Virus record (IMG/VR): IMGVR_UViG_3300048838_000238
Coordinates: 1-64,000 of that record
Direction: 5' to 3' (one strand)
DNA length: 64,000 nucleotides
From: a virus
Of this stretch, positions 8,500-17,530 are shown one piece after another. The notes under the pieces were generated by a model. The model was not told the DNA's origin, ran no database searches, and saw only the letters and a program-made list of their open reading frames with translations. Each line of letters begins with the position of its first letter. Position 1 is the stretch's first letter. Position numbers and translations under genes: made by a program.

Positions 8500-8763
8500 T
8501 CAGTATCCTCGTTCCTTCAGCCATTCGATTTCAGCGGCCAGCGCCTCGGATCTCAGACCGAACGGACCAAGAACTACTCCCGGTTCAACCGGTGAAAGAT
8601 CAGCGGTCCAGCCGCCTCCGACCGCTGGTTCAACATGCGACACGCGCCGAACAGACGCTCGACCTAAGTTCAGAAGTTCCGACAATTCGTCTGAGTAGAT
8701 GAACTGCAATTGGCCGTTTTCGTCGATCACTAGGTCGTGGGATTTTATGGCGGTTGTTGTCAT
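8500..8763 (-). CDS. Conserved small protein that I recall accompanying DUF1257/DUF2997/AAA clusters
   Basis: IYSDEL..LG.ASVRRVSHVEP..GWTADLSPV..VLGPF..RSEALAAEIEWL. Confidence 0.65.
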   Translation of the reverse strand: MTTTAIKSHDLVIDENGQLQFIYSDELSELLNLGRASVRRVSHVEPAVGGGWTADLSPVEPGVVLGPFGLRSEALAAEIEWLKERGY

Positions 8764-8769
8764 GGAAGT

Positions 8770-8796
8770 TATTCGCCGCGATCGCGGTTTTCTTTG
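8770..8796 (-). promoter_or_regulatory. Sigma28-like promoter 6 nt upstream of the ATG (possibly leaderless)
   Basis: CAAA-N15-GGCGAATA. Confidence 0.65.
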
Positions 8797-9006
8797 TTAG
8801 TGGCAATGTCCAGCGGGTTCTGCGGTGCGATCGTTCCATGCGCGAGTCACGCGATCATTCGTGTTCCAAAGGTTTACTCCCGGTTTTCTAGGTGGACCAA
8901 GAGCAAGACAGTCGAGACACAACACGCGGCGCACTTCGCTGAACTTCTTTTTGCGAATCTCGGCTCTGATACTGCCGCAAAACGGGCATGGATTTGGCAT
9001 CGCCAT
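8797..9006 (-). CDS. Lar-like restriction-alleviation zinc finger
   Basis: PCPFCG...VLCLDCLA.GP...AWNDR. Confidence 0.65.
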   Translation of the reverse strand: MAMPNPCPFCGSIRAEIRKKKFSEVRRVLCLDCLALGPPRKPGVNLWNTNDRVTRAWNDRTAEPAGHCH

Positions 9007-9045
9007 AAGGTTTCTCGCGTGCTAGATGCAATGTGATCGTCGGAA

Positions 9046-10182
9046 CTAATCGCGGCTAAGCGGCATCACCACGTACTTGTAACCGTCCAACTCAAACAGC
9101 ACGGCGCTGTCGCCGTCTCGGATGTGCATCGCGATCCCTGAGTCGCCGGCCACCTTCAGAAACTCCGCCACGAAAGTGTGGTCCAGAGTGATCGTTATGG
9201 GCTCGACTCCGTCTTGGCCGACAATCGGCAATTCAACGTGAGACTTCCCGACTTCCGCTGTATCGCAGGAGACCTCTAGCGTGCCGTCCGAGAACGTGAA
9301 TTCCATGCCTTTCGATTCTTGCGTGGCCACAATGGCGGCTTGCCTGACCGCCGATAACAGCACTGCCGCTGGCAAGTCGATGGTGCGGCAGCCGTCCGTG
9401 CTCGGTAGCACGTCGCGCCACTTCGGAAACTTTCCTTCGACCAGCCGCGAATAGAGCCGCACTCCAGCCGCCACGACGACAATGTGGTTTTCGTACACCG
9501 CGAGCGTGGCCTCGCCTGAATCCGGCAAGACTCGTTGGATCGCGCGTAGTGCCTTGCCGGGCACGATGGTCGTCAGCACGCTTGGCCCGCGTTCTTTCGC
9601 TGCTGCCGCCAGAGGCGCGGTGACTCGCGTTACCGCCAAACGTCTGCCGTCGGTCGCGACTCCCACTAACTCGTCATTGTCTCGGTCCAGCAGCACGCCA
9701 CCCAGTGCATACCGTGACGAGGTTTCATCGCACGCGAAGATCGTCCGCGAGATGAGTTGCCGCAGCGGTCCCGCCGGAACTTGGCAGCACTCGCCATCTT
9801 CGGTTCCAGTCGCGACATTCGGAAATTCATCCGGGTCCATCGTCGGCAGTTTCAGCTGGCTCCGCTCGCCGGATACCGTCAGAGGATCGCCGATCTCTCC
9901 GCTGTCGAGCGTCATGGATTCATCGCGGCATTCGCCGATCATCTTGGTGAACTCAGCTGGCGGCAGCAGCATCGCGCCGCACTGGTCGCCGGATACCTCG
10001 CATCCTTCGACCTCGATACTGACACCAATTTCCAAGTCAGTTGCATTCAGCGTCACGCCCTCTGGGCCGACGATCAACTTGACTTTGGACAGAATCGGCT
10101 TGGGGCAGTTCTTGGATGCCGCTACTGAGGCGGCCACGGCGAATGCCTTTTGCATCTTGGATCGGTTAAACGTGAGTCGCAT
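9046..10182 (-). CDS. dnaN: DNA polymerase III beta sliding clamp
   Basis: KPIL, ATDLEIG, SRYALGGVL, VATDGRRLA, SRLVEGKFPKWRDV, YVVMPL; 378 aa. Confidence 0.95.
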   Translation of the reverse strand: MRLTFNRSKMQKAFAVAASVAASKNCPKPILSKVKLIVGPEGVTLNATDLEIGVSIEVEGCEVSGDQCGAMLLPPAEFTKMIGECRDESMTLDSGEIGDPLTVSGERSQLKLPTMDPDEFPNVATGTEDGECCQVPAGPLRQLISRTIFACDETSSRYALGGVLLDRDNDELVGVATDGRRLAVTRVTAPLAAAAKERGPSVLTTIVPGKALRAIQRVLPDSGEATLAVYENHIVVVAAGVRLYSRLVEGKFPKWRDVLPSTDGCRTIDLPAAVLLSAVRQAAIVATQESKGMEFTFSDGTLEVSCDTAEVGKSHVELPIVGQDGVEPITITLDHTFVAEFLKVAGDSGIAMHIRDGDSAVLFELDGYKYVVMPLSRD

Positions 10183-10375
10183 CGGATTTGTTCCTTGATT
10201 CGGAATTGTCTGGGTTTGGAATGGGGATATGTTTAATCGCGCAATACAGACACGCTACGGTCGCAATCACTTTCAGGAAGCCAAGGTCGTCTTCCGGCGA
10301 CCACGTCGCCGACTCGATTGCCAAAAGAATCCAACACACGGGATACGGGTGACTTAAAACAGAGAACACATTCAC
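10166..10375 (-). CDS. Small membrane protein
   Basis: Two hydrophobic segments; overlaps both neighbours. Confidence 0.45.
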   Translation of the reverse strand: MNVFSVLSHPYPVCWILLAIESATWSPEDDLGFLKVIATVACLYCAIKHIPIPNPDNSESRNKSDATHV

Positions 10376-10563
10376 CGCGATGCCCTTTGCTGATTAGCTT
10401 GACTAGCGGCCAATCGGTACTCGGGTGTCCTGACGTCGGATGTCTTGTTACCGATGGCCTTCTCGATGGCCTCGGTCAAGTTCTGGCAGCCGGGGCCGGA
10501 AACGCCTTTGACTTCGATAGTGGTTTGTCCGTCTTCGTCGATCAGCAGGTCTATGTGTGCCAT
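10372..10563 (-). CDS. DUF2997-family protein
   Basis: IDEDGQTTIEVKGVSGPGCQNLTEAIEKAIG...TPEY. Confidence 0.85.
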   Translation of the reverse strand: MAHIDLLIDEDGQTTIEVKGVSGPGCQNLTEAIEKAIGNKTSDVRTPEYRLAASQANQQRASR

Positions 10564-10598
10564 GTTTCAAATTCCGATGGATGTTAGTTTCTTGGTCT

Positions 10599-10829
10599 TC
10601 AGATCAGAGGCACGACTCGTTCGATGACGAGATCGTCTGGAACGACGATGGCATCGCGAGCGTAAAGTTCCTCAAACAAATCCTCATCGACGTTTCCGGC
10701 GTCAATTGGAAGCCCTTGACTTGTCGCTGGCTCAATCAGACGCTTCCACTCATCGAGCGTCGCCATTACGACTTTGTCGCCGCCATCACGGTGGTAGTCC
10801 TCGAAGAAAATGTGAACGCTTTCAGGCAT
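10599..10829 (-). CDS. Hypothetical acidic protein
   Basis: MPESVHIFFED start with GAAGGA RBS; the longer ORF-track call overlaps DUF1257. Confidence 0.5.
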   Translation of the reverse strand: MPESVHIFFEDYHRDGGDKVVMATLDEWKRLIEPATSQGLPIDAGNVDEDLFEELYARDAIVVPDDLVIERVVPLI

Positions 10830-10870
10830 TATCTTGGTTCCTTCTGTTAAGCTGTTGCTGGTTTTTTGAA

Positions 10871-11320
10871 CTACCGCAGTCTGCCGCCTGTCAAACGCAG
10901 CCGGACCTTGGTGCCTTCCTCGATTCTCTGGACGCGGTAGCCGAGCTTCGCAGCGGCCCTCGCCGCCTTCGACGTCGCCAGTGCCTGCTTGAGCTTCTTG
11001 CAGTTCTCGCCGACTTTCTCCTTCAGGCCCCAGCCGCCCATCCAGAAATCCCATAGCGGCACCAACTTGCCGTCTCGTTCGACAAGTCCGATCTCGTACT
11101 CGGCTCCCGTGCCGTCCTTGACGCGGATGGCGTGATCACACTTACCCAGGTCGGATTTCGTGAAGCCGTCCTGCAAAGGGTAATCGCCTACGCTAGTTCC
11201 GTACCACTTGTAAGTCTTCTGGCCTCGCATCAGCTCGCAGCCGATCAGCTCGCAAGCCAGCGCGACGTCATCGAGTTCATCCGGTCGGATTTCCAAGTCA
11301 ACTACGGCGACGTGCGACAT
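10871..11320 (-). CDS. DUF1257 (Ycf35-like) family protein
   Basis: MSHVAVVDLEI..LALAC..G...CDHAIRV...YEIGL...WDFW...LKQA...AAKLGYRV. Confidence 0.8.
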   Translation of the reverse strand: MSHVAVVDLEIRPDELDDVALACELIGCELMRGQKTYKWYGTSVGDYPLQDGFTKSDLGKCDHAIRVKDGTGAEYEIGLVERDGKLVPLWDFWMGGWGLKEKVGENCKKLKQALATSKAARAAAKLGYRVQRIEEGTKVRLRLTGGRLR

Positions 11321-11344
11321 CGGTTCTGTTCTCCTAAAGAGGCT

Positions 11345-11716
11345 TTAGCCGAAGAGGCTTGTTTGAATATGTCGTTTTGATATATGTGATTCGCCGGCAG
11401 TTGCTGGTTCTTGGGAAGGTTGTTCTTTAATTCTCGGTGCCGGTTTTGGTGCCGGTTTCGGATTCACCGCGACTGCCGCTACACCCAGGGGCTCGGTCGG
11501 CTGATCGCCTTGCGCCGCTTCCATGAGCCTACTGGACCGGCCTCCGTCGATCGACTCGTAAGCGATATGGCCGTTGCAATTCTTGCAGAGGATGTAGACC
11601 CAGCGCGGATTCTGCGCCGCTACTTTCTTCCAGTTCACCGGATCTCGGTGATTCAGGCAGATGCGGACTCCGCGTTGGCTAGCCAGCGTCACTGTTTTAT
11701 TTTGCTTCCGTGACAT
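11345..11716 (-). CDS. Hypothetical zinc-ribbon protein
   Basis: CLNH...CKNC. Confidence 0.5.
   Translation of the reverse strand: MSRKQNKTVTLASQRGVRICLNHRDPVNWKKVAAQNPRWVYILCKNCNGHIAYESIDGGRSSRLMEAAQGDQPTEPLGVAAVAVNPKPAPKPAPRIKEQPSQEPATAGESHISKRHIQTSLFG
11367..11414 (-). promoter_or_regulatory. Promoter (11388-11414) plus operator (11367-11385) upstream of DUF1257
   Basis: CCAA-N15-GGCGAATC; atatgtc-gtttt-gatatat. Confidence 0.7.
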
Positions 11717-11728
11717 CGTATCGTTCTG

Positions 11729-12805
11729 TTAAGCGGTAAAGAGCGACCGTTGTTGTGTACGCTCTTTAGCCAGTGTGATGTACTCTTGGTTCAGCTCGAT
11801 TCCGATGCAGTTGCAGCCGAGTCGGTCGGCGACGTAGCCCGTCGTTCCGCTCCCAAAGAACGTGTCAAGAACCGTACCTCCTTCTGGGCATCCGGCCTTG
11901 ATGCAGGGCTCAATCAACTTTGGCGGGAAGGTCGCGAAGTGCGAGCCTTTGAACGACGCCACATTGACACTCCACACGGAACGACGATTTCTGTTCTCAG
12001 CGATGGCCCGCCTAGACAGTCCGCTGTTTCCGTTCGTGTTATTACATGGATGCTCAGCGGGGCCTCTCATTCGATTGCAAGTGACGGGCTCTTGAATCGC
12101 CTCATAATCAAAGTAGTACCTCGCCGACTTGCTCAACAAAAAGATGTACTCGTGAGACTTCACGCAGCGATCCTTGACAGGCTCGGGCATCACGTTCGTC
12201 TTGTTCCAAATGATATCTTGACGCAAATACCAACCGTCGGCCTGGAGCGCGAACGCGACACGCCACGGAATTCCGATCAGCGACTTCTGAGGGAGTCCAG
12301 TGCTAGTCCTATTGCGCCCGATTGCTGTCTCACCGTGCAATCCATCGGCATGCTTACCGCCCGTCTGACCTCCCCACTTCGTATCGTTCGCGTAACTGTC
12401 TCCGAGGTTCAGCCAAAGTGTTCCGTCGTCGCGCAGCACTCGCTTGACTTCTCGAAACACTTCAACGAGTTTTGCAACGTACTCGTCCGGAGTTTTCTCC
12501 AGGCCGAGCTGTTGATCGATAAGGACGGCCCCACAGTCGCCGCACACGCCACGATAACCATACTTCGCGACCACGGCAGCGCCGTCCTGCTTCGATCCGT
12601 TCAGGCCACTCCCGTCGCGTGCCCACATCGATTGATTCTTGCCATTCCTGACGTGTTCGCACTCCGCATCACCGCCCTGCCACTCCGCAGTTCCGTAATC
12701 GCGAAGCCCATAGTACGGAGGCGATGTCACGCAGCAATGTACCGATCCCGACTCGATAGTCGGAAGCACACTGCGGCAGTCCCCCTGGAGGATCGTGATT
12801 GTCAT
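11729..12805 (-). CDS. Orphan beta-class DNA methyltransferase (m4C likely)
   Basis: VTSPPY, WLNLGDSY, HEYIFLL, HFATFP, VLDTFFGSGTTG. Confidence 0.95.
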   Translation of the reverse strand: MTITILQGDCRSVLPTIESGSVHCCVTSPPYYGLRDYGTAEWQGGDAECEHVRNGKNQSMWARDGSGLNGSKQDGAAVVAKYGYRGVCGDCGAVLIDQQLGLEKTPDEYVAKLVEVFREVKRVLRDDGTLWLNLGDSYANDTKWGGQTGGKHADGLHGETAIGRNRTSTGLPQKSLIGIPWRVAFALQADGWYLRQDIIWNKTNVMPEPVKDRCVKSHEYIFLLSKSARYYFDYEAIQEPVTCNRMRGPAEHPCNNTNGNSGLSRRAIAENRNRRSVWSVNVASFKGSHFATFPPKLIEPCIKAGCPEGGTVLDTFFGSGTTGYVADRLGCNCIGIELNQEYITLAKERTQQRSLFTA

Positions 12806-12998
12806 CGCCTACTTGATCCTCATGTGGTAACTCGAAAAACCGGACGGCTCGATGCGGGCCACACGTCCTCGCCGTCCTTACTCTCAGACAATGCCCAGGC
12901 CGAATTTCTTAGGACGGCCAACCCTATCCAAGCGGCGGACAAAACTCCGCGACCGCCGCATGGAACATGCAGGTATCAAAGATTGACTGAATGCAGCG

Positions 12999-13184
12999 CT
13001 AACCAAAGCCGGTCGGAAACTCCTGCATCGTTTCGATGAACTCAATTATCAGCGGGAAGTGTGGGCTGCGGTTTCCAGGTAACTCGGTTCTCTCCAGTAC
13101 AACCGCATGTGATTCTCGTTCGCCGTGCAGGCCGTAGTAGGTAATCTGAACAACCGCTCGAAAGCGAGTCCGCTTTGGTATCAC
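12999..13184 (-). CDS. Hypothetical protein
   Basis: 61-aa ORF with GTGA overlap and GGAGG RBS. Confidence 0.45.
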   Translation of the reverse strand: MIPKRTRFRAVVQITYYGLHGERESHAVVLERTELPGNRSPHFPLIIEFIETMQEFPTGFG

Positions 13185-13735
13185 GTTACTGCGCCTCCTG
13201 TCTTCTCACGGACTTCGTTGGCGTGACGCTCAAGCTCGCAGCGCAAAACCTTTAACCACTCCACTCTCGTGATCTTTCTGCGTTCAGACTGCTTGAGATC
13301 GTAGTAGCCTCCAAAGCAGGATACCCGTACGTCAGGAGAACGCCCGACTTTATGATACGGCGCATTTTCCTCGCTGATCGGGCACCACCGCAGCAACCTC
13401 CTGGACGCCAGCAAGTTGGCGATATTACAGCTCCACGCGCCACAATTCACCGATATGAAACGGTCAAATGTCCCGATGCCGAAATCTAAGATGTGACTTA
13501 TCCACCACCCACTGCCGATTCCACATTCTACGGTGGAAGGCTCCTTGTACTGCCGACCACTATCCGCCGGATATCGCAGGTCGTAATCCAGCCGCGCGCG
13601 ATACGCCAGCCACTCTGGCAAAGTGAGAAGATCGTTCCATACCGTTCCGACATCACCATCTGAGTAGGCGTGTAACCACTGGCGAGATGACTTATCCTTG
13701 CCGTCGATTATTAACACGTCGCCGTGAGTTGACAT
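13181..13735 (-). CDS. Hypothetical protein
   Basis: Start MSTHGD; WLHAYSDG motif. Confidence 0.55.
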   Translation of the reverse strand: MSTHGDVLIIDGKDKSSRQWLHAYSDGDVGTVWNDLLTLPEWLAYRARLDYDLRYPADSGRQYKEPSTVECGIGSGWWISHILDFGIGTFDRFISVNCGAWSCNIANLLASRRLLRWCPISEENAPYHKVGRSPDVRVSCFGGYYDLKQSERRKITRVEWLKVLRCELERHANEVREKTGGAVT

Positions 13736-13748
13736 CCGCTTGCCTTTC

Positions 13749-14984
13749 CTAAACTTCGTCGTCAAAGGTGATCGCGCGAGTTGGGCGATCAATCAACATC
13801 GTTTCCATCCGGTCCTTCAAGTCGCGTAGGCCGTTGCTGATATGCAGCCGCGTGTCTTCGTCGCTGCGCAGCTTGGTCGGATCGACGCCGCCGACGAGCG
13901 CCTTGGCTTCCTGGACCAACTGGTCCAGCGCCGCGTTGCTGCCGATGTTCAACTGACCGAACCGGTCAAAGAAGTCCCGCAAGCCGCCTACAGCCGAGTC
14001 GCGGAACGTCTTGTGTTCCATCGTGGTCCGCTCAAAGCGGCAGCCGCATTCCGTGAGCCATGCGGCAGCCGCCTCTTTGTCGTCAAACTTAAATGTCGTT
14101 CTGCGGCCTTTCTCGGGAATCGCCGATACGTCGCCGTCGCGGACCTCGATCGCGCCAGCACGAGACAGCGCAGCGCGGCGATTGACTTCGGACAGCCGGT
14201 TATTAAGGGCTTCGACGTCGCTTGTGAACGCCGCCGTGGAACCGTCGGCAGACGGCAACTCCAATTCGATCGCTTCGGCTTGGGCTTCCAACTCGGCGGT
14301 AGAAGGTCCGTTCTGATAGACCCAGACTTCGACCGACTGCGGCTGCAACCGATCAAATAGGTGCTCGACCAGCCCTGAGAATTCATTGCTAAATGCTCGC
14401 TCTGTCATGGCAATCGCTTCGTCGAACTTGGCGGCGAGACGGGCTTCTTGCTGCGCGTACAGTTCCGGGTTCAGTTGCTTCAAGAAGTTTGGCGGCTTCA
14501 CCGATGGGAACTCCCAATCGACGCTGAACTCTTCTGCGATGTTGGTCGGATAGTCGGCCTCATCGAACAGAGAGCCCAGATCGGCTTCCGCCTGATTGCG
14601 GATTCCCTCGTAAGCTTCCTGCAAAGCTGCGGTCGCTTGATCCAGCTCCGCGCGGTAGACGACCATGCGAGAATTGAACTCGTCGATGCGGTCGCGGCGC
14701 AGCAGCCGAATACCAGACTCTGGATACGGGATTGTGGAGTTCTTCCAGAACTGATTGATCTGGTAGAACACGGCGCTGACCGCGAGATACGGCGCGCTCG
14801 ACGGATCGATCAGCCGCTTCGTGGCACGCAAGCTGTCGACCGATGCGCCAAAGGTCAGCGCGGCTTGCTGTGTCTTCTCCTTGGGCAGCGCCCGGCGGAC
14901 GCCAAACTTCTTGGTGCTGACCTTGGTGGCAGCGGTTTCCGCTTGCAGCTTGGTGGTCAGGTCTTGATCGAGTAGTTCCGGCAT
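13749..14984 (-). CDS. DUF3150-like coiled-coil protein
   Basis: ATKRLIDP, TIPYPESGIRLLRRDRI, LGSLFDEADYP, WEFPSVKPP, FRDSAV, LNIGSN. Confidence 0.75.
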   Translation of the reverse strand: MPELLDQDLTTKLQAETAATKVSTKKFGVRRALPKEKTQQAALTFGASVDSLRATKRLIDPSSAPYLAVSAVFYQINQFWKNSTIPYPESGIRLLRRDRIDEFNSRMVVYRAELDQATAALQEAYEGIRNQAEADLGSLFDEADYPTNIAEEFSVDWEFPSVKPPNFLKQLNPELYAQQEARLAAKFDEAIAMTERAFSNEFSGLVEHLFDRLQPQSVEVWVYQNGPSTAELEAQAEAIELELPSADGSTAAFTSDVEALNNRLSEVNRRAALSRAGAIEVRDGDVSAIPEKGRRTTFKFDDKEAAAAWLTECGCRFERTTMEHKTFRDSAVGGLRDFFDRFGQLNIGSNAALDQLVQEAKALVGGVDPTKLRSDEDTRLHISNGLRDLKDRMETMLIDRPTRAITFDDEV

Positions 14985-15009
14985 GGATCTGGTCCTTTCG
15001 TGTTCGGGA

Positions 15010-15057
15010 GTATAGCAGGGTGATATAGGTTATTCGCCTCGCGGGACGGAATCTTTA
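15010..15057 (-). promoter_or_regulatory. Promoter TAAA-N15-GGCGAATA (15031-15057) plus operator (15010-15028)
   Basis: Minus strand taaagattccgtcccgcgaggcgaataacctatatc. Confidence 0.8.
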
Positions 15058-15086
15058 CTCTCGGCGATCGTTGCATTCAAGAGGCG

Positions 15087-15392
15087 CTAATAGTTTTCCT
15101 GCGCGAAGTCAGTATCGAAAACCGCGTCAGCCCACTCATCGGTCCCGTCATCCCATGCACTCAGAATGCACGAGGCGAATCGATACCCGCGTCCGTCTGG
15201 AACGACGCGAACAACCTCTTGCAGAATCGCCACAGCAACAGCCGGCTCGACAAGCCTCCAACGCTTTGCGAATATGTCAACGTCCATCACCTCTAGGGGT
15301 CCTTTGTCGTCGTACGAGTATTCGCCGAATGCCTTAATCGCTCCAGCGATAGCGACAGCAGCGGAAGCCGCTTCTGAATTTATGTCCAGCAT
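15087..15392 (-). CDS. Hypothetical protein
   Basis: MLDINSE start with AAGGA RBS. Confidence 0.55.
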   Translation of the reverse strand: MLDINSEAASAAVAIAGAIKAFGEYSYDDKGPLEVMDVDIFAKRWRLVEPAVAVAILQEVVRVVPDGRGYRFASCILSAWDDGTDEWADAVFDTDFAQENY

Positions 15393-15573
15393 CGTCAATT
15401 CCTTTCCGGTCGATCGTATCGAAGAACGCACATCGGAAACCGTCTCGCTAGGCTGACTCGCCAACCAGCGTCCCATAGTCGCCGGTTAGGCTCCGTGCCA
15501 AGCGAGTACGTTACGCCTCGATACTTCCACACGATTCGATTTAGAAACCAGTTCATTGCACTCGCTCGCTGAG

Positions 15574-15621
15574 TAGTATCAGTTCGATATAGGTTATTCG
15601 CCGCGTGAGACAGAATCTTTA
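15574..15621 (-). promoter_or_regulatory. Promoter TAAA-N15-GGCGAATA (15595-15621) plus operator (15574-15592)
   Basis: Minus strand taaagattctgtctcacgcggcgaataacctatatc. Confidence 0.8.
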
Positions 15622-15930
15622 GCCGGTTTCTTCGCTATCGCTTGCGGCACCTTGCTCCACGACAGGCGGCGGATTAACGATCGCGTCGATGTTCGGGATC
15701 GTGGTATCGAGAAGTGCGGCCAGTGCTCGCAACTGCTCTCCCATTTTGGTTGCCTGCTTGGCTCTCTCGATGATACTGTTCACCGTCGCGAGGCGCTGGC
15801 ACGGGTCCGCTGAACATCCGACCGGCGGCCTGATGCGGCCGCCTAAGAATTCGTCCATTTCTTTCCAGGTCAATTCGACGATCGCATTGCCATAATCGCG
15901 ATCACTGGACGTGTACGCTATAACCTTCAT
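15619..15930 (-). CDS. Hypothetical protein
   Basis: 103-aa ORF with GGAG RBS. Confidence 0.55.
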   Translation of the reverse strand: MKVIAYTSSDRDYGNAIVELTWKEMDEFLGGRIRPPVGCSADPCQRLATVNSIIERAKQATKMGEQLRALAALLDTTIPNIDAIVNPPPVVEQGAASDSEETG

Positions 15931-15963
15931 CGCTTGCTTCTCCGTTACTTGGTTCTTGGGAAT

Positions 15964-17454
15964 CTACTCCAGTTCGATGGCCGCTCTTTGAGTCGGCTGG
16001 ATCATCTGTGCCGCGCCAGCCTTGCGGTAGAAACCGCGATATGACGCCGACAAGTACCGTCCGTCGCAACCGTCACGCAAAGCGTCGATTTGCTCGCCAG
16101 CACTGCGCGACACCGGCACGATGTAGTCCGCTGCTTGCTTGAGCGTGATCCCTTGCAGGTATGCCAGTTCACAGCAGTTCTCGATTTCGGCGCCGGTCCA
16201 GCCGCTGTCGACCGGCTTGTTCATGATGTACTTGCCGGGCAGCTCGTACTTGCCGATGTACATGGCCCAAATCGAGTCGCGCTCTTTATCGGTCGGCAAG
16301 TCAAAGAAAAACGTGCCGAGCTTAAACCTTCGGCGCAATTCTGGTTTGAGTGACTGAATGGAATTGCACGTTGCCACCCAGATCGCGTTACCGTTGGAAA
16401 CACTGGTGATGACCTTCAGCGCCTGTCGAATGGTCTTCTCTGATTCCCCGACGAGGCTTCCCTTGGCACTTCCCAGGTCTAACTGGATGGTCGGAACGCC
16501 CGCTTCGTTGCCGAGTGACTTCGCGACGGCGCTCTTGCCGGAACCGGCTGGTCCCAGGAAGATCGCGCCGCGGCTGCGCCGGTCCTGCATGTACGTCAGC
16601 AAGCAGCCGAGTTGGTCTTGCGAAACTCCAGACGTGTCGCCTTCGCCGCCGAGCGCCTTTTCGATCTCATCCAGGAAGATTATCGCGTTCGGGCGGGCCG
16701 GGCCGGATATGACGCGACCAAGGAATTCCTTGACGTTATCGTAGCCGCCGATGTCCTTGAACCGATTTCCTTCGCGCCACACACTGAGCGCCGGGCACTG
16801 TTCGATTTGCTGCCGCTTCCGCTCCCACAGGTCGTCGACATGAATACCTTCACGGGTGAAGCTCATCGCGATAGCCTGTTCAGCAGCAAACGCTGACAGC
16901 CCTTGTACGGCTTCGACGGCGCGAACTCGCGTTTCATCCGGCACCGGCACCTGCGCTGCGACCGATACCGAATCAACCACTTGACCGAGTTGCTCGCCGG
17001 TGGGGAGCGGATCGTCCAGGCATAACACGTCGTTTTGCAACTCGGCTGGCAACCGGAAGTCTGGACCAAGTAACACGAGCGTCCGCTTGTCACCCTTGAA
17101 TAAGTCGCGGACATTGCAGATCGCCTGCAAGAAGTCGACTTTCTCCAGGAAGCGATTTCCCATGTGGATGAAGAAGATCGTTTTGGCTGGCAGCCGTTCG
17201 CCGGCCAGAACTGCAAGCTGTTCGTTGCCAGCGGTCGCATCTGCTAGGTCGCCGACGGCGCCCACGGCCTCTAGTCCCAGGTCGTTAATCGCTTTCATGC
17301 CGCGCATCACGTCCCACTGGACGATTGGTGTATTGCCGTTGCTAACTTCCAGGATACGGTTAATGATCGCGGTCGGATCGGGGGTGCTGATTGCCATCAG
17401 CGGAACGGCTGCGTTACGGGCGGCTTTGAATTGTTTGAGAATATCGGCAGACAT
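15964..17454 (-). CDS. Ycf46-like AAA+ ATPase
   Basis: Degenerate N-terminal AAA domain, DIGGYDNVKEFL, FLDEIEKA, Walker A GPAGSGKS, GSLVGESE, LKPELRRRF..FFFDLP, GWTGAEI. Confidence 0.9.
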   Translation of the reverse strand: MSADILKQFKAARNAAVPLMAISTPDPTAIINRILEVSNGNTPIVQWDVMRGMKAINDLGLEAVGAVGDLADATAGNEQLAVLAGERLPAKTIFFIHMGNRFLEKVDFLQAICNVRDLFKGDKRTLVLLGPDFRLPAELQNDVLCLDDPLPTGEQLGQVVDSVSVAAQVPVPDETRVRAVEAVQGLSAFAAEQAIAMSFTREGIHVDDLWERKRQQIEQCPALSVWREGNRFKDIGGYDNVKEFLGRVISGPARPNAIIFLDEIEKALGGEGDTSGVSQDQLGCLLTYMQDRRSRGAIFLGPAGSGKSAVAKSLGNEAGVPTIQLDLGSAKGSLVGESEKTIRQALKVITSVSNGNAIWVATCNSIQSLKPELRRRFKLGTFFFDLPTDKERDSIWAMYIGKYELPGKYIMNKPVDSGWTGAEIENCCELAYLQGITLKQAADYIVPVSRSAGEQIDALRDGCDGRYLSASYRGFYRKAGAAQMIQPTQRAAIELE

Positions 17455-17482
17455 TGTGTTTCTCTCCGCGTTTTAGAACAAC

Positions 17483-17530
17483 CTACATCGTAGTGATATA
17501 TGTAGTTCGCCGCGAGATGCACGATATTGG
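17483..17530 (-). promoter_or_regulatory. Promoter (17504-17530) plus operator (17483-17501) upstream of the AAA gene
   Basis: CCAA-N15-GGCGAACT; ctacatc-gtagt-gatatat. Confidence 0.7.

Follow-up and report, generated by a model that had tools for sequence, protein, structure and literature searches.

A Ycf46-type AAA+ ATPase and four partner genes as a putative mobile-DNA module, split by insertions in an uncultured phage genome

Introduction

The closest described relatives of the locus considered here are the cyanobacterial and plastid proteins Ycf46, Ycf35 (DUF1257) and DUF2997, the same three families as in the phage module. Ycf46 is loosely characterised as a KaiC-interacting, stress-induced protein linked to CO2 use (PMC13683863), and the DUF2997 and DUF1257 genes are adjacent in cyanobacteria, together with fed7 (PMC4284462). 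The phage module has, in addition, a DUF3150-like protein and the SHVEP protein, neither of which is reported for the cyanobacterial set, and no paper describing the five-gene module was found.

The window, i.e., the whole stretch of DNA that was analysed, comprises the first 64,000 nucleotides of IMG/VR record IMGVR_UViG_3300048838_000238. Its source is a 106-kb uncultured phage genome that is complete (direct terminal repeats, 100% complete), and the host of the phage is probably a member of Planctomycetota.

The five genes and their families

The five open reading frames of the original prediction, which had been made from the letters of the window, are all present on the minus strand, within 8.96 kb:

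15964..17454, minus strand: Ycf46-type AAA+ ATPase, 496 aa (PF00004, AF2 model, Foldseek)
13749..14984, minus strand: DUF3150-like protein, 411 aa (fold match, BLASTP, position beside the ATPase)
10871..11320, minus strand: DUF1257 (Ycf35)-like protein, 149 aa, conserved MSH N-terminus (homologues)
10372..10563, minus strand: DUF2997 protein, 63 aa (PF11211, phrog_23133)
8500..8763, minus strand: fifth member, the SHVEP protein, 87 aa (conserved motif R-[AV]-SHVEP...W.ADLSPV...LGPF)

The family names proposed for them hold as well: AAA and DUF2997 are matched directly by Pfam, and the DUF1257-like and DUF3150-like proteins are reached through homologues. The DUF2997 protein scores 50.2 bits against PF11211 (cut-off 24.1; 2.3e-13). 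The DUF1257-like protein gives no direct Pfam match, including PF06868, even at E<=10; however, BLASTP aligns it over its full length to gp67 of Aeromonas phage HJ05 (1e-9), itself a DUF1257 protein (34.6 bits), and tblastn finds it 51–52% identical to a coding region in one of the collected loci (L004:3767-4225) that passes PF06868 (22.9 bits, cut-off 22.2). The SHVEP protein represents a conserved family for which Pfam has no model and is 51% identical to the product of the gene after DUF3150 on plasmid CP114559.

Co-occurrence of the five genes

In 240 loci, each fetched via a single member of the set, the remaining four genes are found again in the same direction, usually within 3.4–5.6 kb; the carriers are phages, islands of Planctomycetota and a plasmid of Nitrospirota. 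A first set of 80 viral loci was fetched through the DUF3150-like protein alone; its 36 closest loci have the ATPase within 10 kb, and these 36 contain DUF1257 in 32 cases, DUF2997 in 31 and SHVEP in 25. All five families are present in 45 of 80 loci from Planctomycetota genomes, most of the others ending at a contig edge, and the exact order DUF1257–DUF2997–AAA–DUF3150–SHVEP is found in 38 of the 45. With the ATPase as sole bait for viral loci, the DUF3150-like gene was detected in 78/80 and all five genes in 34/80; DUF1257 was found in 57/80 and DUF2997 in 42/80, with small-protein HMMs that were iterated on the loci of this analysis and whose profiles for DUF1257 and DUF2997 are merged in part via fusion proteins. 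The co-occurrence profiling that had been proposed as a check thus returned a reciprocal association, with either the DUF3150-like protein or the ATPase as bait.

The compact operon that the original prediction gave as usual for these families was recovered too, the five genes spanning 3.4–9.9 kb (median about 4.5 kb) in the 34 complete relatives. The nearest relatives (ATPase 49–53% identical) have the same gene order as the window within 4.1 kb, and plasmid CP114559 carries AAA–DUF1257–DUF2997–DUF3150–SHVEP in 3.3 kb under NCBI's own names. On a cyanobacterial plasmid, DUF1257, DUF2997 and AAA adjoin Hsp70 and GrpE, and Planctomycetota carry several module copies per genome, on recombinase-bearing islands. 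Two tight pairs stand out among the partners: DUF1257 and DUF2997, adjacent and sometimes fused (loci L027 and L028), and the DUF3150-like and SHVEP genes, the latter present in most module loci and lying directly 3' of DUF3150 in Planctomycetota. Reciprocal co-occurrence, together with a gene order that matches the compact operons of the nearest relatives, supports the prediction that the five genes would form one conserved functional set.

The uneven counts could instead reflect two separate neighbouring systems, an AAA–DUF3150–SHVEP unit and a self-sufficient DUF1257–DUF2997 unit like that beside the cyanobacterial ferredoxin. The ATPase and the DUF3150-like protein are the tightest partners, DUF2997–ycf35–fed7 clusters exist without an adjacent AAA gene (PMC4284462), and an AAA+ gene of another type can accompany DUF3150. 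We nevertheless regard this division as unlikely: the DUF1257–DUF2997 pair stays beside the ATPase across three gene orders and four host groups, plastid genomes also have Ycf46 and Ycf35 together, and the lower counts of the small proteins probably stem from weak HMM sensitivity and contig ends.

Parts of the set do occur apart, which counts against a single module: DUF2997–DUF1257 with fed7, DUF3150 with MoxR/VWA genes, and the ATPase without the rest of the set in mycobacteriophage Catdawg.

Insertions and promoter-like elements

The methylase, dnaN and Lar genes reported as interleaved with the five are seen in the window. dnaN recurs with the module in 0/80 loci and in 1/82 loci of the first set, and neither Lar nor any of the eight interleaved hypothetical ORFs recurs (0/80 each); methylase, dnaN and Lar are at most sporadic in module loci. 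Because the interleaved genes do not recur, the 8.96-kb spread is attributed to lineage-specific insertions; in this phage these would have left the module as three or four transcription units. The module's neighbours here are a helicase, the clamp, the methylase and Lar; in relatives they are PolA, Cas4-like nucleases, RepO and recombinases.

Promoter-like elements precede four of the five genes:

17481..17530, minus strand: promoter-like element 5' of the ATPase gene (-35-like box, GGCGAAC -10-like box, inverted repeat)
15008..15056, minus strand: the same element 5' of the DUF3150-like gene (motif search)
11365..11413, minus strand: the same element 5' of the DUF1257-like gene (motif search)
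8771..8794, minus strand: bipartite half-element AAGAA-N12-GGCGAAT, without the inverted repeat (motif search)

Matches to the 18-mer GGCGAANNACNTATATCA lie at 17494, 15021 and 11378, and the window has 10 of them in total, all on the minus strand, against 0.08 expected; the bipartite pattern has 11 matches against 0.7 expected. Between the copy at 11365..11413 and the site at 8771 there is no other. The claim that each piece has its own promoter stands for the three full copies, whereas the site given as 8770 is a half-element only. Its -10-like GGCGAATAA box (8779-8771) ends 5 nt 5' of the ATG (8763) of the 87-aa gene, whose transcript would be leaderless.

The original prediction had read these sites as repeated promoter acquisition by the module. 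As an argument this finds no support, since such acquisition is not peculiar to the five genes: the motif acts as general promoter of the phage and has 15 full copies across the genome, all on one strand and 5' of many unrelated genes; one of them, at 15585, belongs to an inserted gene within the module. A general sigma-28-like family of this kind implies ordinary re-promotion rather than special co-regulation, and each cut-off piece simply carries the phage's standard promoter. The motif is similar to sigma-28 promoters, and a sigma factor gene is present in the phage genome; middle expression would be as compatible with this as the early expression first suggested.

The AAA+ ATPase

The ATPase scores 60.3 bits against PF00004 (cut-off 21.2), matching model positions 2–54 only. 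Its AF2 model (pLDDT 93.7) gives whole-length Foldseek matches to Rix7, NVL and p97 D1–D2 (E about 3e-13), with alignments of about 580 columns over two stacked AAA domains. The N-domain (aa 1–235) is predicted to be D1-like and degenerate and is followed by an active D2-like AAA domain; by sequence reading, the first AAA-like tier lacks a P-loop. The protein thus models as a two-tier p97/Rix7-like unfoldase with an inactive upper tier. An Atlas structure search matches the N-domain to 'ycf46 family' clusters and cyanobacterial AAA clusters (TM 0.86–0.87), a lead-grade match, so that the Ycf46-type label comes from structure clusters rather than from reference-sequence alignment. In keeping with that label, a characteristic N-terminal domain of ~240 aa precedes a single active AAA domain in the structure match, and the gene is associated with DUF1257 and DUF2997.

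16573..16686, minus strand: Walker B beta-alpha unit, aa 257–294, IIFLDEIEK...LLTYMQD (alignment, motif search, tree)
16531..16554, minus strand: Walker A P-loop, aa 301–308, GPAGSGKS (K307 and S308 invariant in 69 sequences)
16438..16458, minus strand: pore-loop 1, aa 333–339, SLVGESE (sequence reading and conservation)
15967..15987, minus strand: C-terminal tail RAAIELE (likeness to the DUF3150-like tail)

The canonical AAA order is Walker A, pore loop, Walker B, sensor 1. Here Walker B (aa 257–265) is encoded upstream of Walker A (aa 301–308), whereas in canonical relatives it follows about 50 residues after Walker A in the alignment. Aligned locally with the Walker B segment found in canonical relatives, the displaced unit scores 82 (shuffles 26.7+-4.0). 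Among the 119 best homologues, the motif search finds Walker B before Walker A in all but one, which is unclassifiable, and the clade with this order is monophyletic in a quick tree. Walker A, the Walker B acidic pair, the sensor-1 Asn and the arginine fingers are all kept: across 69 sequences K307, S308, E263, N364 and R376 are invariant, and D262 and R375 reach at least 90% conservation. An apparently competent ATPase motor is part of the set, in line with the ATP-driven machine of the original prediction. In pore-loop 1, G336 does not vary among the same 69 sequences, and L334 and V335 are kept in at least 90% of them. An aromatic residue is usual in the pore loops of unfoldases; here it is replaced by Leu. 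Both this Leu and the unorthodox strand order count against the unfoldase reading.

The DUF3150-like protein

No direct Pfam match was obtained for this protein even at a permissive threshold, PF11348 included, and PF11348 matches 0/18 of its close relatives. Homologues and predicted fold nevertheless bear out the DUF3150 assignment: BLASTP aligns it to the NCBI-annotated DUF3150 protein WDT77850.1 (4e-20 and 3e-18), Foldseek to the BFVD DUF3150 entry A0A6J7WV52 (E 1.5e-14, TM 0.81), and 7/8 distant relatives show weak, colinear, sub-threshold PF11348 matches. Family members have ~315 aa; the 411-aa window copy carries an insertion.

14019..14339, minus strand: insertion of ~107 aa (aa 216–322), in this copy only (alignment)
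13752..13778, minus strand: C-terminal tail RAITFDDEV (tail comparison)

The insertion has no other match among the ORFs of the about 240 loci and its model, of low to moderate confidence, shows a small alpha/beta domain. The tails of the ATPase and the DUF3150-like protein are similar (R-x-I-x-hydrophobic-acidic); across loci the motif is enriched and tail charge is correlated between the two proteins, in statistics that ignore relatedness. Distant DUF3150 relatives follow a MoxR-type AAA+ gene in 40/44 loci, and since DUF3150 comes after an AAA+ gene in both settings, the family looks like a general AAA+ partner.

Proposed function

The explanation we lean towards is that the five genes are one mobile-DNA module, a Ycf46-type AAA+ unfoldase with four dedicated partners, split here by insertions. 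As to its function, the sequences and models fit a dedicated unfoldase with adaptors best. The ATPase hexamer would thread or extract a protein substrate, the four small proteins may be adaptors, regulators or substrates, and the similar tails of the ATPase and the DUF3150-like protein could dock onto one shared partner surface. Judging by the neighbouring genes, here and in relatives, the target would lie in the element's replication or in its establishment in the host. Of the roles first suggested, protein remodelling suits the ATPase fold, while nothing points to membrane remodelling.

More tentatively, and with considerable doubt, we hypothesize one physical machine: a p97-like hexameric unfoldase with a rewired AAA+ fold (Walker B unit ahead of the P-loop) and tail-docked cofactors, with which phages, plasmids and integrating islands would dismantle a specific protein complex of the host or the element during establishment or replication. 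If true, the plastid and cyanobacterial orphans ycf46 and ycf35 would gain a first mechanistic frame.

An unfoldase might also serve a ubiquitin-like tagging pathway, as Cdc48 does with ubiquitin, acting on proteins tagged by E1, E2 and JAB components. A ThiF-type E1 (83 bits) and a weak Prok-JAB match lie a few genes 3' of SHVEP in Planctomycetota islands, and on plasmid CP114559 a JAB gene lies 5' of the module. We give this little credence: compact viral loci show no E1 or JAB, and a profile search of the complete 106-kb genome found no match to ThiF or Prok-JAB, so the module must work without the cassette here.

A defence, counter-defence or toxin–antitoxin-like device, with the AAA+ protein governing a partner in the manner of IetA (IetAS) or SgiA (sgiAT), seems very unlikely too. 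The ATPase has weak, partial matches to IetA models (PADLOC 9e-9, NCBIfam 5e-7), Lar and an orphan methylase are inserted into the module, and the Planctomycetota copies are multiple and island-borne; yet the matches lie far below cut-off and span generic AAA segments only, PADLOC matches none of the four partners, and the set contains no protease or other recognisable effector. An anti-defence role, also raised at the outset, is possible, without direct support.

A DNA-directed replication accessory (clamp handling or origin remodelling) in place of a general protein unfoldase is scarcely probable: the module sits in a replication block and dnaN lies inside its split copy, but the clamp is not recurrent, and the matches of the ATPase lie in the classical p97/Rix7 clade and not among clamp loaders or initiators. 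This idea would overlap with the unfoldase module if the substrate were a replication protein.

Comparison with known systems

IetAS-like defence was considered as a counterpart and rejected, the IetA match reaching 29 bits against a 510-bit cut-off and no protease being present among the module genes or their neighbours. BilABCD/Bub resemble the module through the E1 and JAB genes near it in Planctomycetota islands and on one plasmid; these genes are absent from this phage, and the link is one of neighbourhood only. Systems of a MoxR ATPase with a VWA protein (e.g., RavA–ViaA, CbbQ–CbbO) offer a parallel in that distant DUF3150 relatives likewise follow an AAA+ gene, lying between MoxR-like AAA+ and DUF2201 VWA/metallopeptidase genes in 40–41/44 phage loci; however, the window ATPase is of another type than MoxR, and a VWA protein is missing from the module. 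Compared with Ycf46, the phage ATPase differs by its Walker B unit upstream of Walker A.

Cdc48/p97/VAT and Rix7/NVL share with the module ATPase the whole-length fold over two stacked AAA-like tiers, and the classical-clade motifs, among them the GESE pore-loop context and the paired arginine fingers. In contrast to Cdc48/p97, the module ATPase has no upper-tier P-loop, carries a Leu pore loop and a transposed Walker B, and has partners unrelated to Ufd1–Npl4 or UBX proteins; in the model, the N-terminal double-psi barrel of p97 is absent and the protein begins with the D1-like alpha/beta domain. As in Cdc48/p97, the cofactors of the module may dock through the C-terminal tail.

Family identity of the five genes

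The five genes of the module lie on the minus strand, which carries every gene between 8 and 19 kb of the window, and were assigned as follows:

15964-17454, minus: AAA ATPase, 496 aa (PF00004, 60 bits; N-terminal half matches phrog_8638)
13749-14984, minus: DUF3150-like protein, 411 aa (homologues and predicted fold)
10871-11320, minus: DUF1257-like protein (homologues)
10372-10563, minus: DUF2997 protein (Pfam, 50 bits)
8500-8763, minus: SHVEP protein, 87 aa (family without a Pfam model)

The family names in the original prediction proved right, two of them directly by Pfam and the DUF1257 and DUF3150 assignments through homologues or fold. The DUF1257-like, DUF3150-like and 87-aa proteins gave no match when scanned directly against Pfam, PHROG, NCBIfam and PADLOC, and the DUF1257-like product had no Pfam match even at E<=10. 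The latter aligns over its full length to gp67 (DUF1257) of Aeromonas phage HJ05 (1e-9) and shares 51-52% identity (tblastn) with a viral-contig protein scoring above the DUF1257 cut-off. The DUF3150-like product belongs to a family of ~315-aa proteins and carries a private insertion of ~107 aa (residues 216-322), on both flanks of which an NCBI-annotated DUF3150 protein was matched (4e-20 and 3e-18). Among BFVD structures, a "DUF3150 domain-containing protein" matches its AlphaFold model (pLDDT 85; E 1.5e-14, TM 0.81), and colinear sub-threshold DUF3150 matches occur in 7 of 8 distant relatives. The 87-aa family is defined by the conserved motif R-[AV]-SHVEP...W.ADLSPV...LGPF. PDB sequence searches with the four partner proteins gave no match.

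An iterated profile also placed gp96 of Tunturiibacter phage Tunturi_3 (L002:15699-16658), labelled "HNH endonuclease", in the DUF3150-like family; Pfam found no HNH domain in it, and the annotation is probably wrong.

Co-occurrence of the five families

To assess linkage, loci were fetched via one member only and the other families were then looked for. The DUF3150-like family as bait yielded 80 viral contigs; the window's own protein, run as a single sequence against viral contigs, gave no match. In the 36 closest contigs, the ATPase was located within 10 kb in every case, accompanied by DUF1257 in 32, DUF2997 in 31 and SHVEP in 25, always co-directionally. The reciprocal search with the ATPase alone (80 viral contigs) recovered the DUF3150-like family in 78, DUF1257 in 57, DUF2997 in 42 and SHVEP in 34, the small-protein counts being lower bounds, and the complete set was found in 34 of the 80. 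The ATPase itself is abundant, with 1951 homologues at E<1e-10 among 8000 candidates scored.

A scan of Planctomycetota genomes with alignment A3 revealed 286 loci encoding a relative of the DUF3150-like protein, 80 of which underlie the counts reported here. All five families were present in 45 of these 80 loci, with 38 showing precisely the order DUF1257-DUF2997-AAA-DUF3150-SHVEP, and most incomplete loci were interrupted by contig ends. The module also occurs in the cultured phages Tunturi_3 and HJ05, whose ATPase, DUF1257 and DUF2997 genes are gp103-101 and gp65, 67 and 68, respectively. On a Candidatus Manganitrophus (Nitrospirota) plasmid, AAA, DUF1257, DUF2997, DUF3150 and an 84-aa gene, the DUF names being NCBI's own, are packed into 3.3 kb, and the product of the 84-aa gene is 51% identical to the 87-aa protein of the window. 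The five genes are linked in viral contigs, Planctomycetota genomes and a plasmid.

None of the hypothetical ORFs that separate the five genes in the window recurs with the module in the compared loci. The clamp gene dnaN was considered as a sixth member and rejected, being present in 0 of 80 loci and in 1 of 82 loci of the first set; Lar recurred in 0 of 80 loci and the methylase in 2 of 80. Likewise, the window gene at 13181-13792 shows no similarity to the 185-aa gene that follows DUF3150 in a compared locus (L004), and that equivalence was discarded. In the viral lineage of L008:10891-11961 and 16 related contigs, a ~350-aa protein with similarity to left-handed beta-helix (hexapeptide-repeat) proteins is encoded between the DUF3150-like and SHVEP genes.

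The IMG/VR virus record holding the window, which is its first 64 kb, spans 105,996 bp, has direct terminal repeats and is rated complete. No close relative was found among the deposited phages searched. Because homologues of the window genes come overwhelmingly from Planctomycetota, this phylum is the likely host group.

The split arrangement in the window

In the nearest relatives (ATPase 49-53% identical), the genes follow exactly the order of the window (AAA, DUF3150-like, DUF1257, DUF2997, SHVEP) within ~4.1 kb and with overlapping stop and start codons. The 34 complete sets span 3.4-9.9 kb, all but four of them <=5.6 kb, and the window's module, at 8.96 kb, is the third widest. It has been pushed apart by about ten inserted ORFs, among them:

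15619-15930, minus: inserted ORF
15087-15476, minus: inserted ORF
13181-13792, minus: inserted ORF
12999-13184, minus: inserted ORF
11729-12805, minus: inserted N6/N4 methylase
11345-11716, minus: inserted ORF
10166-10375, minus: inserted ORF
9046-10182, minus: inserted dnaN
8797-9006, minus: inserted Lar

A 307-bp gap (10564-10870) parts the normally adjacent DUF1257-like and DUF2997 genes; it contains the tail of a putative ORF, 10599-11054, with a single weak relative in a compared locus (L012:13441-13650, 3e-7). The split in this phage shows that the parts of the module can do without translational coupling, which is useful for co-expression design.

Promoter-like elements

The 18-mer GGCGAANNACNTATATCA is present in 10 copies in the window, against 0.08 expected, on the minus strand only, and in 15 copies across the whole genome, on a single strand, 5 of them outside the window. 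Aligned copies consist of CCAAGAT, 13 nt and GGCGAAT.AC, followed by the inverted repeat CTATATC-N4/5-GATATAG, and a start codon lies 25-60 nt downstream of each element. The bipartite pattern AAGAA-N12-GGCGAAT gave 11 minus-strand matches against 0.7 expected. Sites in the window are:

11378, 15021, 15585, 17494, 23951, 28986, 30610, 34092, 37727, 52638, minus: full promoter-like copies
8771, 34179, 54694, 61730, minus: bipartite-only sites

The copies at 17494, 15021 and 11378 are situated upstream of the ATPase, DUF3150-like and DUF1257 genes, respectively, and the copy at 15585 upstream of an inserted gene. The 8770 site has both boxes at the right spacing (AAGAA-N12-GGCGAAT) without the inverted repeat. 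Because its -10-like GGCGAATAA box ends 5 nt upstream of the ATG of the 87-aa gene, a leaderless mRNA from this predicted site is possible. The inverted repeat of the element resembles an operator placed across the start of transcription.

Both boxes of the element are similar to the sigma-28 consensus TAAAGTTT-N11-GCCGATAA. The sole sigma-70-family gene of the phage (33115-33876, minus; Sigma70_r2, 32 bits) is a candidate reader of the promoter family. A scan of the region for consensus sigma-70 promoters and terminators gave matches at chance level only. The original prediction, that each piece of the module had acquired its own promoter for early expression, stands with respect to the copies, which are real, but not with respect to a special acquisition by the module, as 15 copies occur genome-wide and one precedes an inserted gene. 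The family is the general promoter of the phage and leaves the timing of expression unfixed.

The ATPase

AlphaFold modeling of the ATPase yielded a confident structure (pLDDT 93.7), which can be aligned from end to end with two-tier AAA+ proteins (Rix7, NVL, p97/Cdc48; E ~3e-13). In the model, the first 235 residues make up a D1-like tier that lacks a P-loop and matches "ycf46 family" clusters of the ESM Atlas (TM 0.86-0.87). The active tier retains the Walker A K307, the Walker B acidic pair D262/E263, the sensor-1 N364, R375/R376 and the conserved pore loop SLVG; the protein is an AAA+ motor.

The Walker B strand and helix (aa 257-294) come after the DIGG linker helix and ahead of the P-loop strand, and are absent from their usual position after the pore loop; in canonical relatives, all Planctomycetota genomic copies included, the homologous segment lies ~50 residues after Walker A. 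Local alignment of the moved and canonical segments scored 82, against 26.7+-4.0 for shuffles. Because the segment is moved, Pfam covers only the first 54 model positions. Among the 119 best homologues, a motif search found Walker B before Walker A in every protein except a single unclassifiable one, and the permuted ATPases form one clade in a quick maximum-likelihood tree (SH-aLRT 100). Unexpectedly, the Walker B unit thus appears to have been transposed upstream of the P-loop in this clade; if confirmed by structure, this would represent an unusual rewiring of the AAA+ core.

Partner proteins

DUF1257 and DUF2997 genes are normally adjacent and often overlapping in the compared loci, and in two of these a single ORF of ~240 aa combines DUF1257-like N-terminal and DUF2997 C-terminal parts (L027:10891-11616 and L028:10891-11610). 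Such adjacency and fusion are a classic sign of a heterodimer, which the two proteins may form. In 76 of the 80 Planctomycetota loci, the SHVEP gene lies directly 3' of the DUF3150-like gene.

The C-terminal tails of the ATPase and the DUF3150-like protein resemble each other: they read RAAIELE and RAITFDDEV in the window and RELDI and RELDLD in one compared locus (L029), while the Planctomycetota copies have basic RR-type tails on both proteins. Within the last 14 residues, 33% of ATPases and 41% of DUF3150-like proteins contain the rigid pattern R-x(1,2)-hydrophobic-x-hydrophobic; its frequency is 10% among control ORFs and 1-8% in the remaining three families. In the permuted clade, the tail charges of the two proteins correlate (Spearman 0.54, n=79, uncorrected for relatedness).

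The DUF3150-like protein is modelled with long helical hairpins and a terminal four-helix bundle. Foldseek against the PDB returned nothing at E<=0.001, and VIA-align wide gave generic four-helix-bundle matches only (Z<=9.3, residues 185-403); these searches, which barely probed the N-terminal half and the insertion, found no solved fold of known function. The distant DUF3150 relatives are not standalone, an AAA+ neighbour being present in 40-41 of 44 loci (L040-L083, e.g. L040:8413-12044), where MoxR-like AAA+, DUF3150 and a DUF2201 VWA/metallopeptidase form a triad followed by PolA, a PD-(D/E)XK nuclease, an SNF2 helicase and an Nmad5 protein. Given this triad, DUF3150 appears to accompany AAA+ motors generally.

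Function and genomic neighbourhood

On balance, we lean towards a module that comprises a dedicated p97-like unfoldase with two adaptor or regulator pairs. The motor would assemble into a hexamer and thread its substrates, with tail docking, and the two partner pairs would serve it as adaptors or regulators; mobile elements would direct the module at a target linked to replication or establishment. On the cyanobacterial Pseudanabaena galeata plasmid pPg_01 (L246), the GrpE and Hsp70 genes immediately precede those for DUF1257, an ATP-binding protein, DUF2997 and AAA, a neighbourhood that fits a proteostasis role.

In Planctomycetota (L084-L163, e.g. L084:3545-14220), the module is present in several copies per genome, which look like residents of integrating islands, with a large serine recombinase upstream. 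The SHVEP gene is followed 3' by two small conserved ORFs, a 413-aa protein, a weak Prok-JAB match and a ThiF E1, or alternatively by a 484-aa protein and a Cas4-like PD-(D/E)XK nuclease. The neighbourhood link to ubiquitin-like tagging genes is real in these islands and on one plasmid; it cannot apply to this phage, because its complete genome encodes neither E1 nor JAB.

For decades, Ycf46 and Ycf35 of plastids and cyanobacteria have remained orphan genes. The module is common, yet literature searches on the component families found no paper describing it; in the literature, its parts have no identity beyond DUF designations or the orphan names Ycf46 and Ycf35 (PMC4284462, PMC13683863). The window contributes an insertion-split and re-promoted module, a DUF3150-like protein with an insertion of its own, and a member of the permuted-ATPase clade. 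By linking Ycf46 and Ycf35 to DUF2997, DUF3150 and a fifth protein, the module on mobile DNA points to their joint action and names the partners for testing it.
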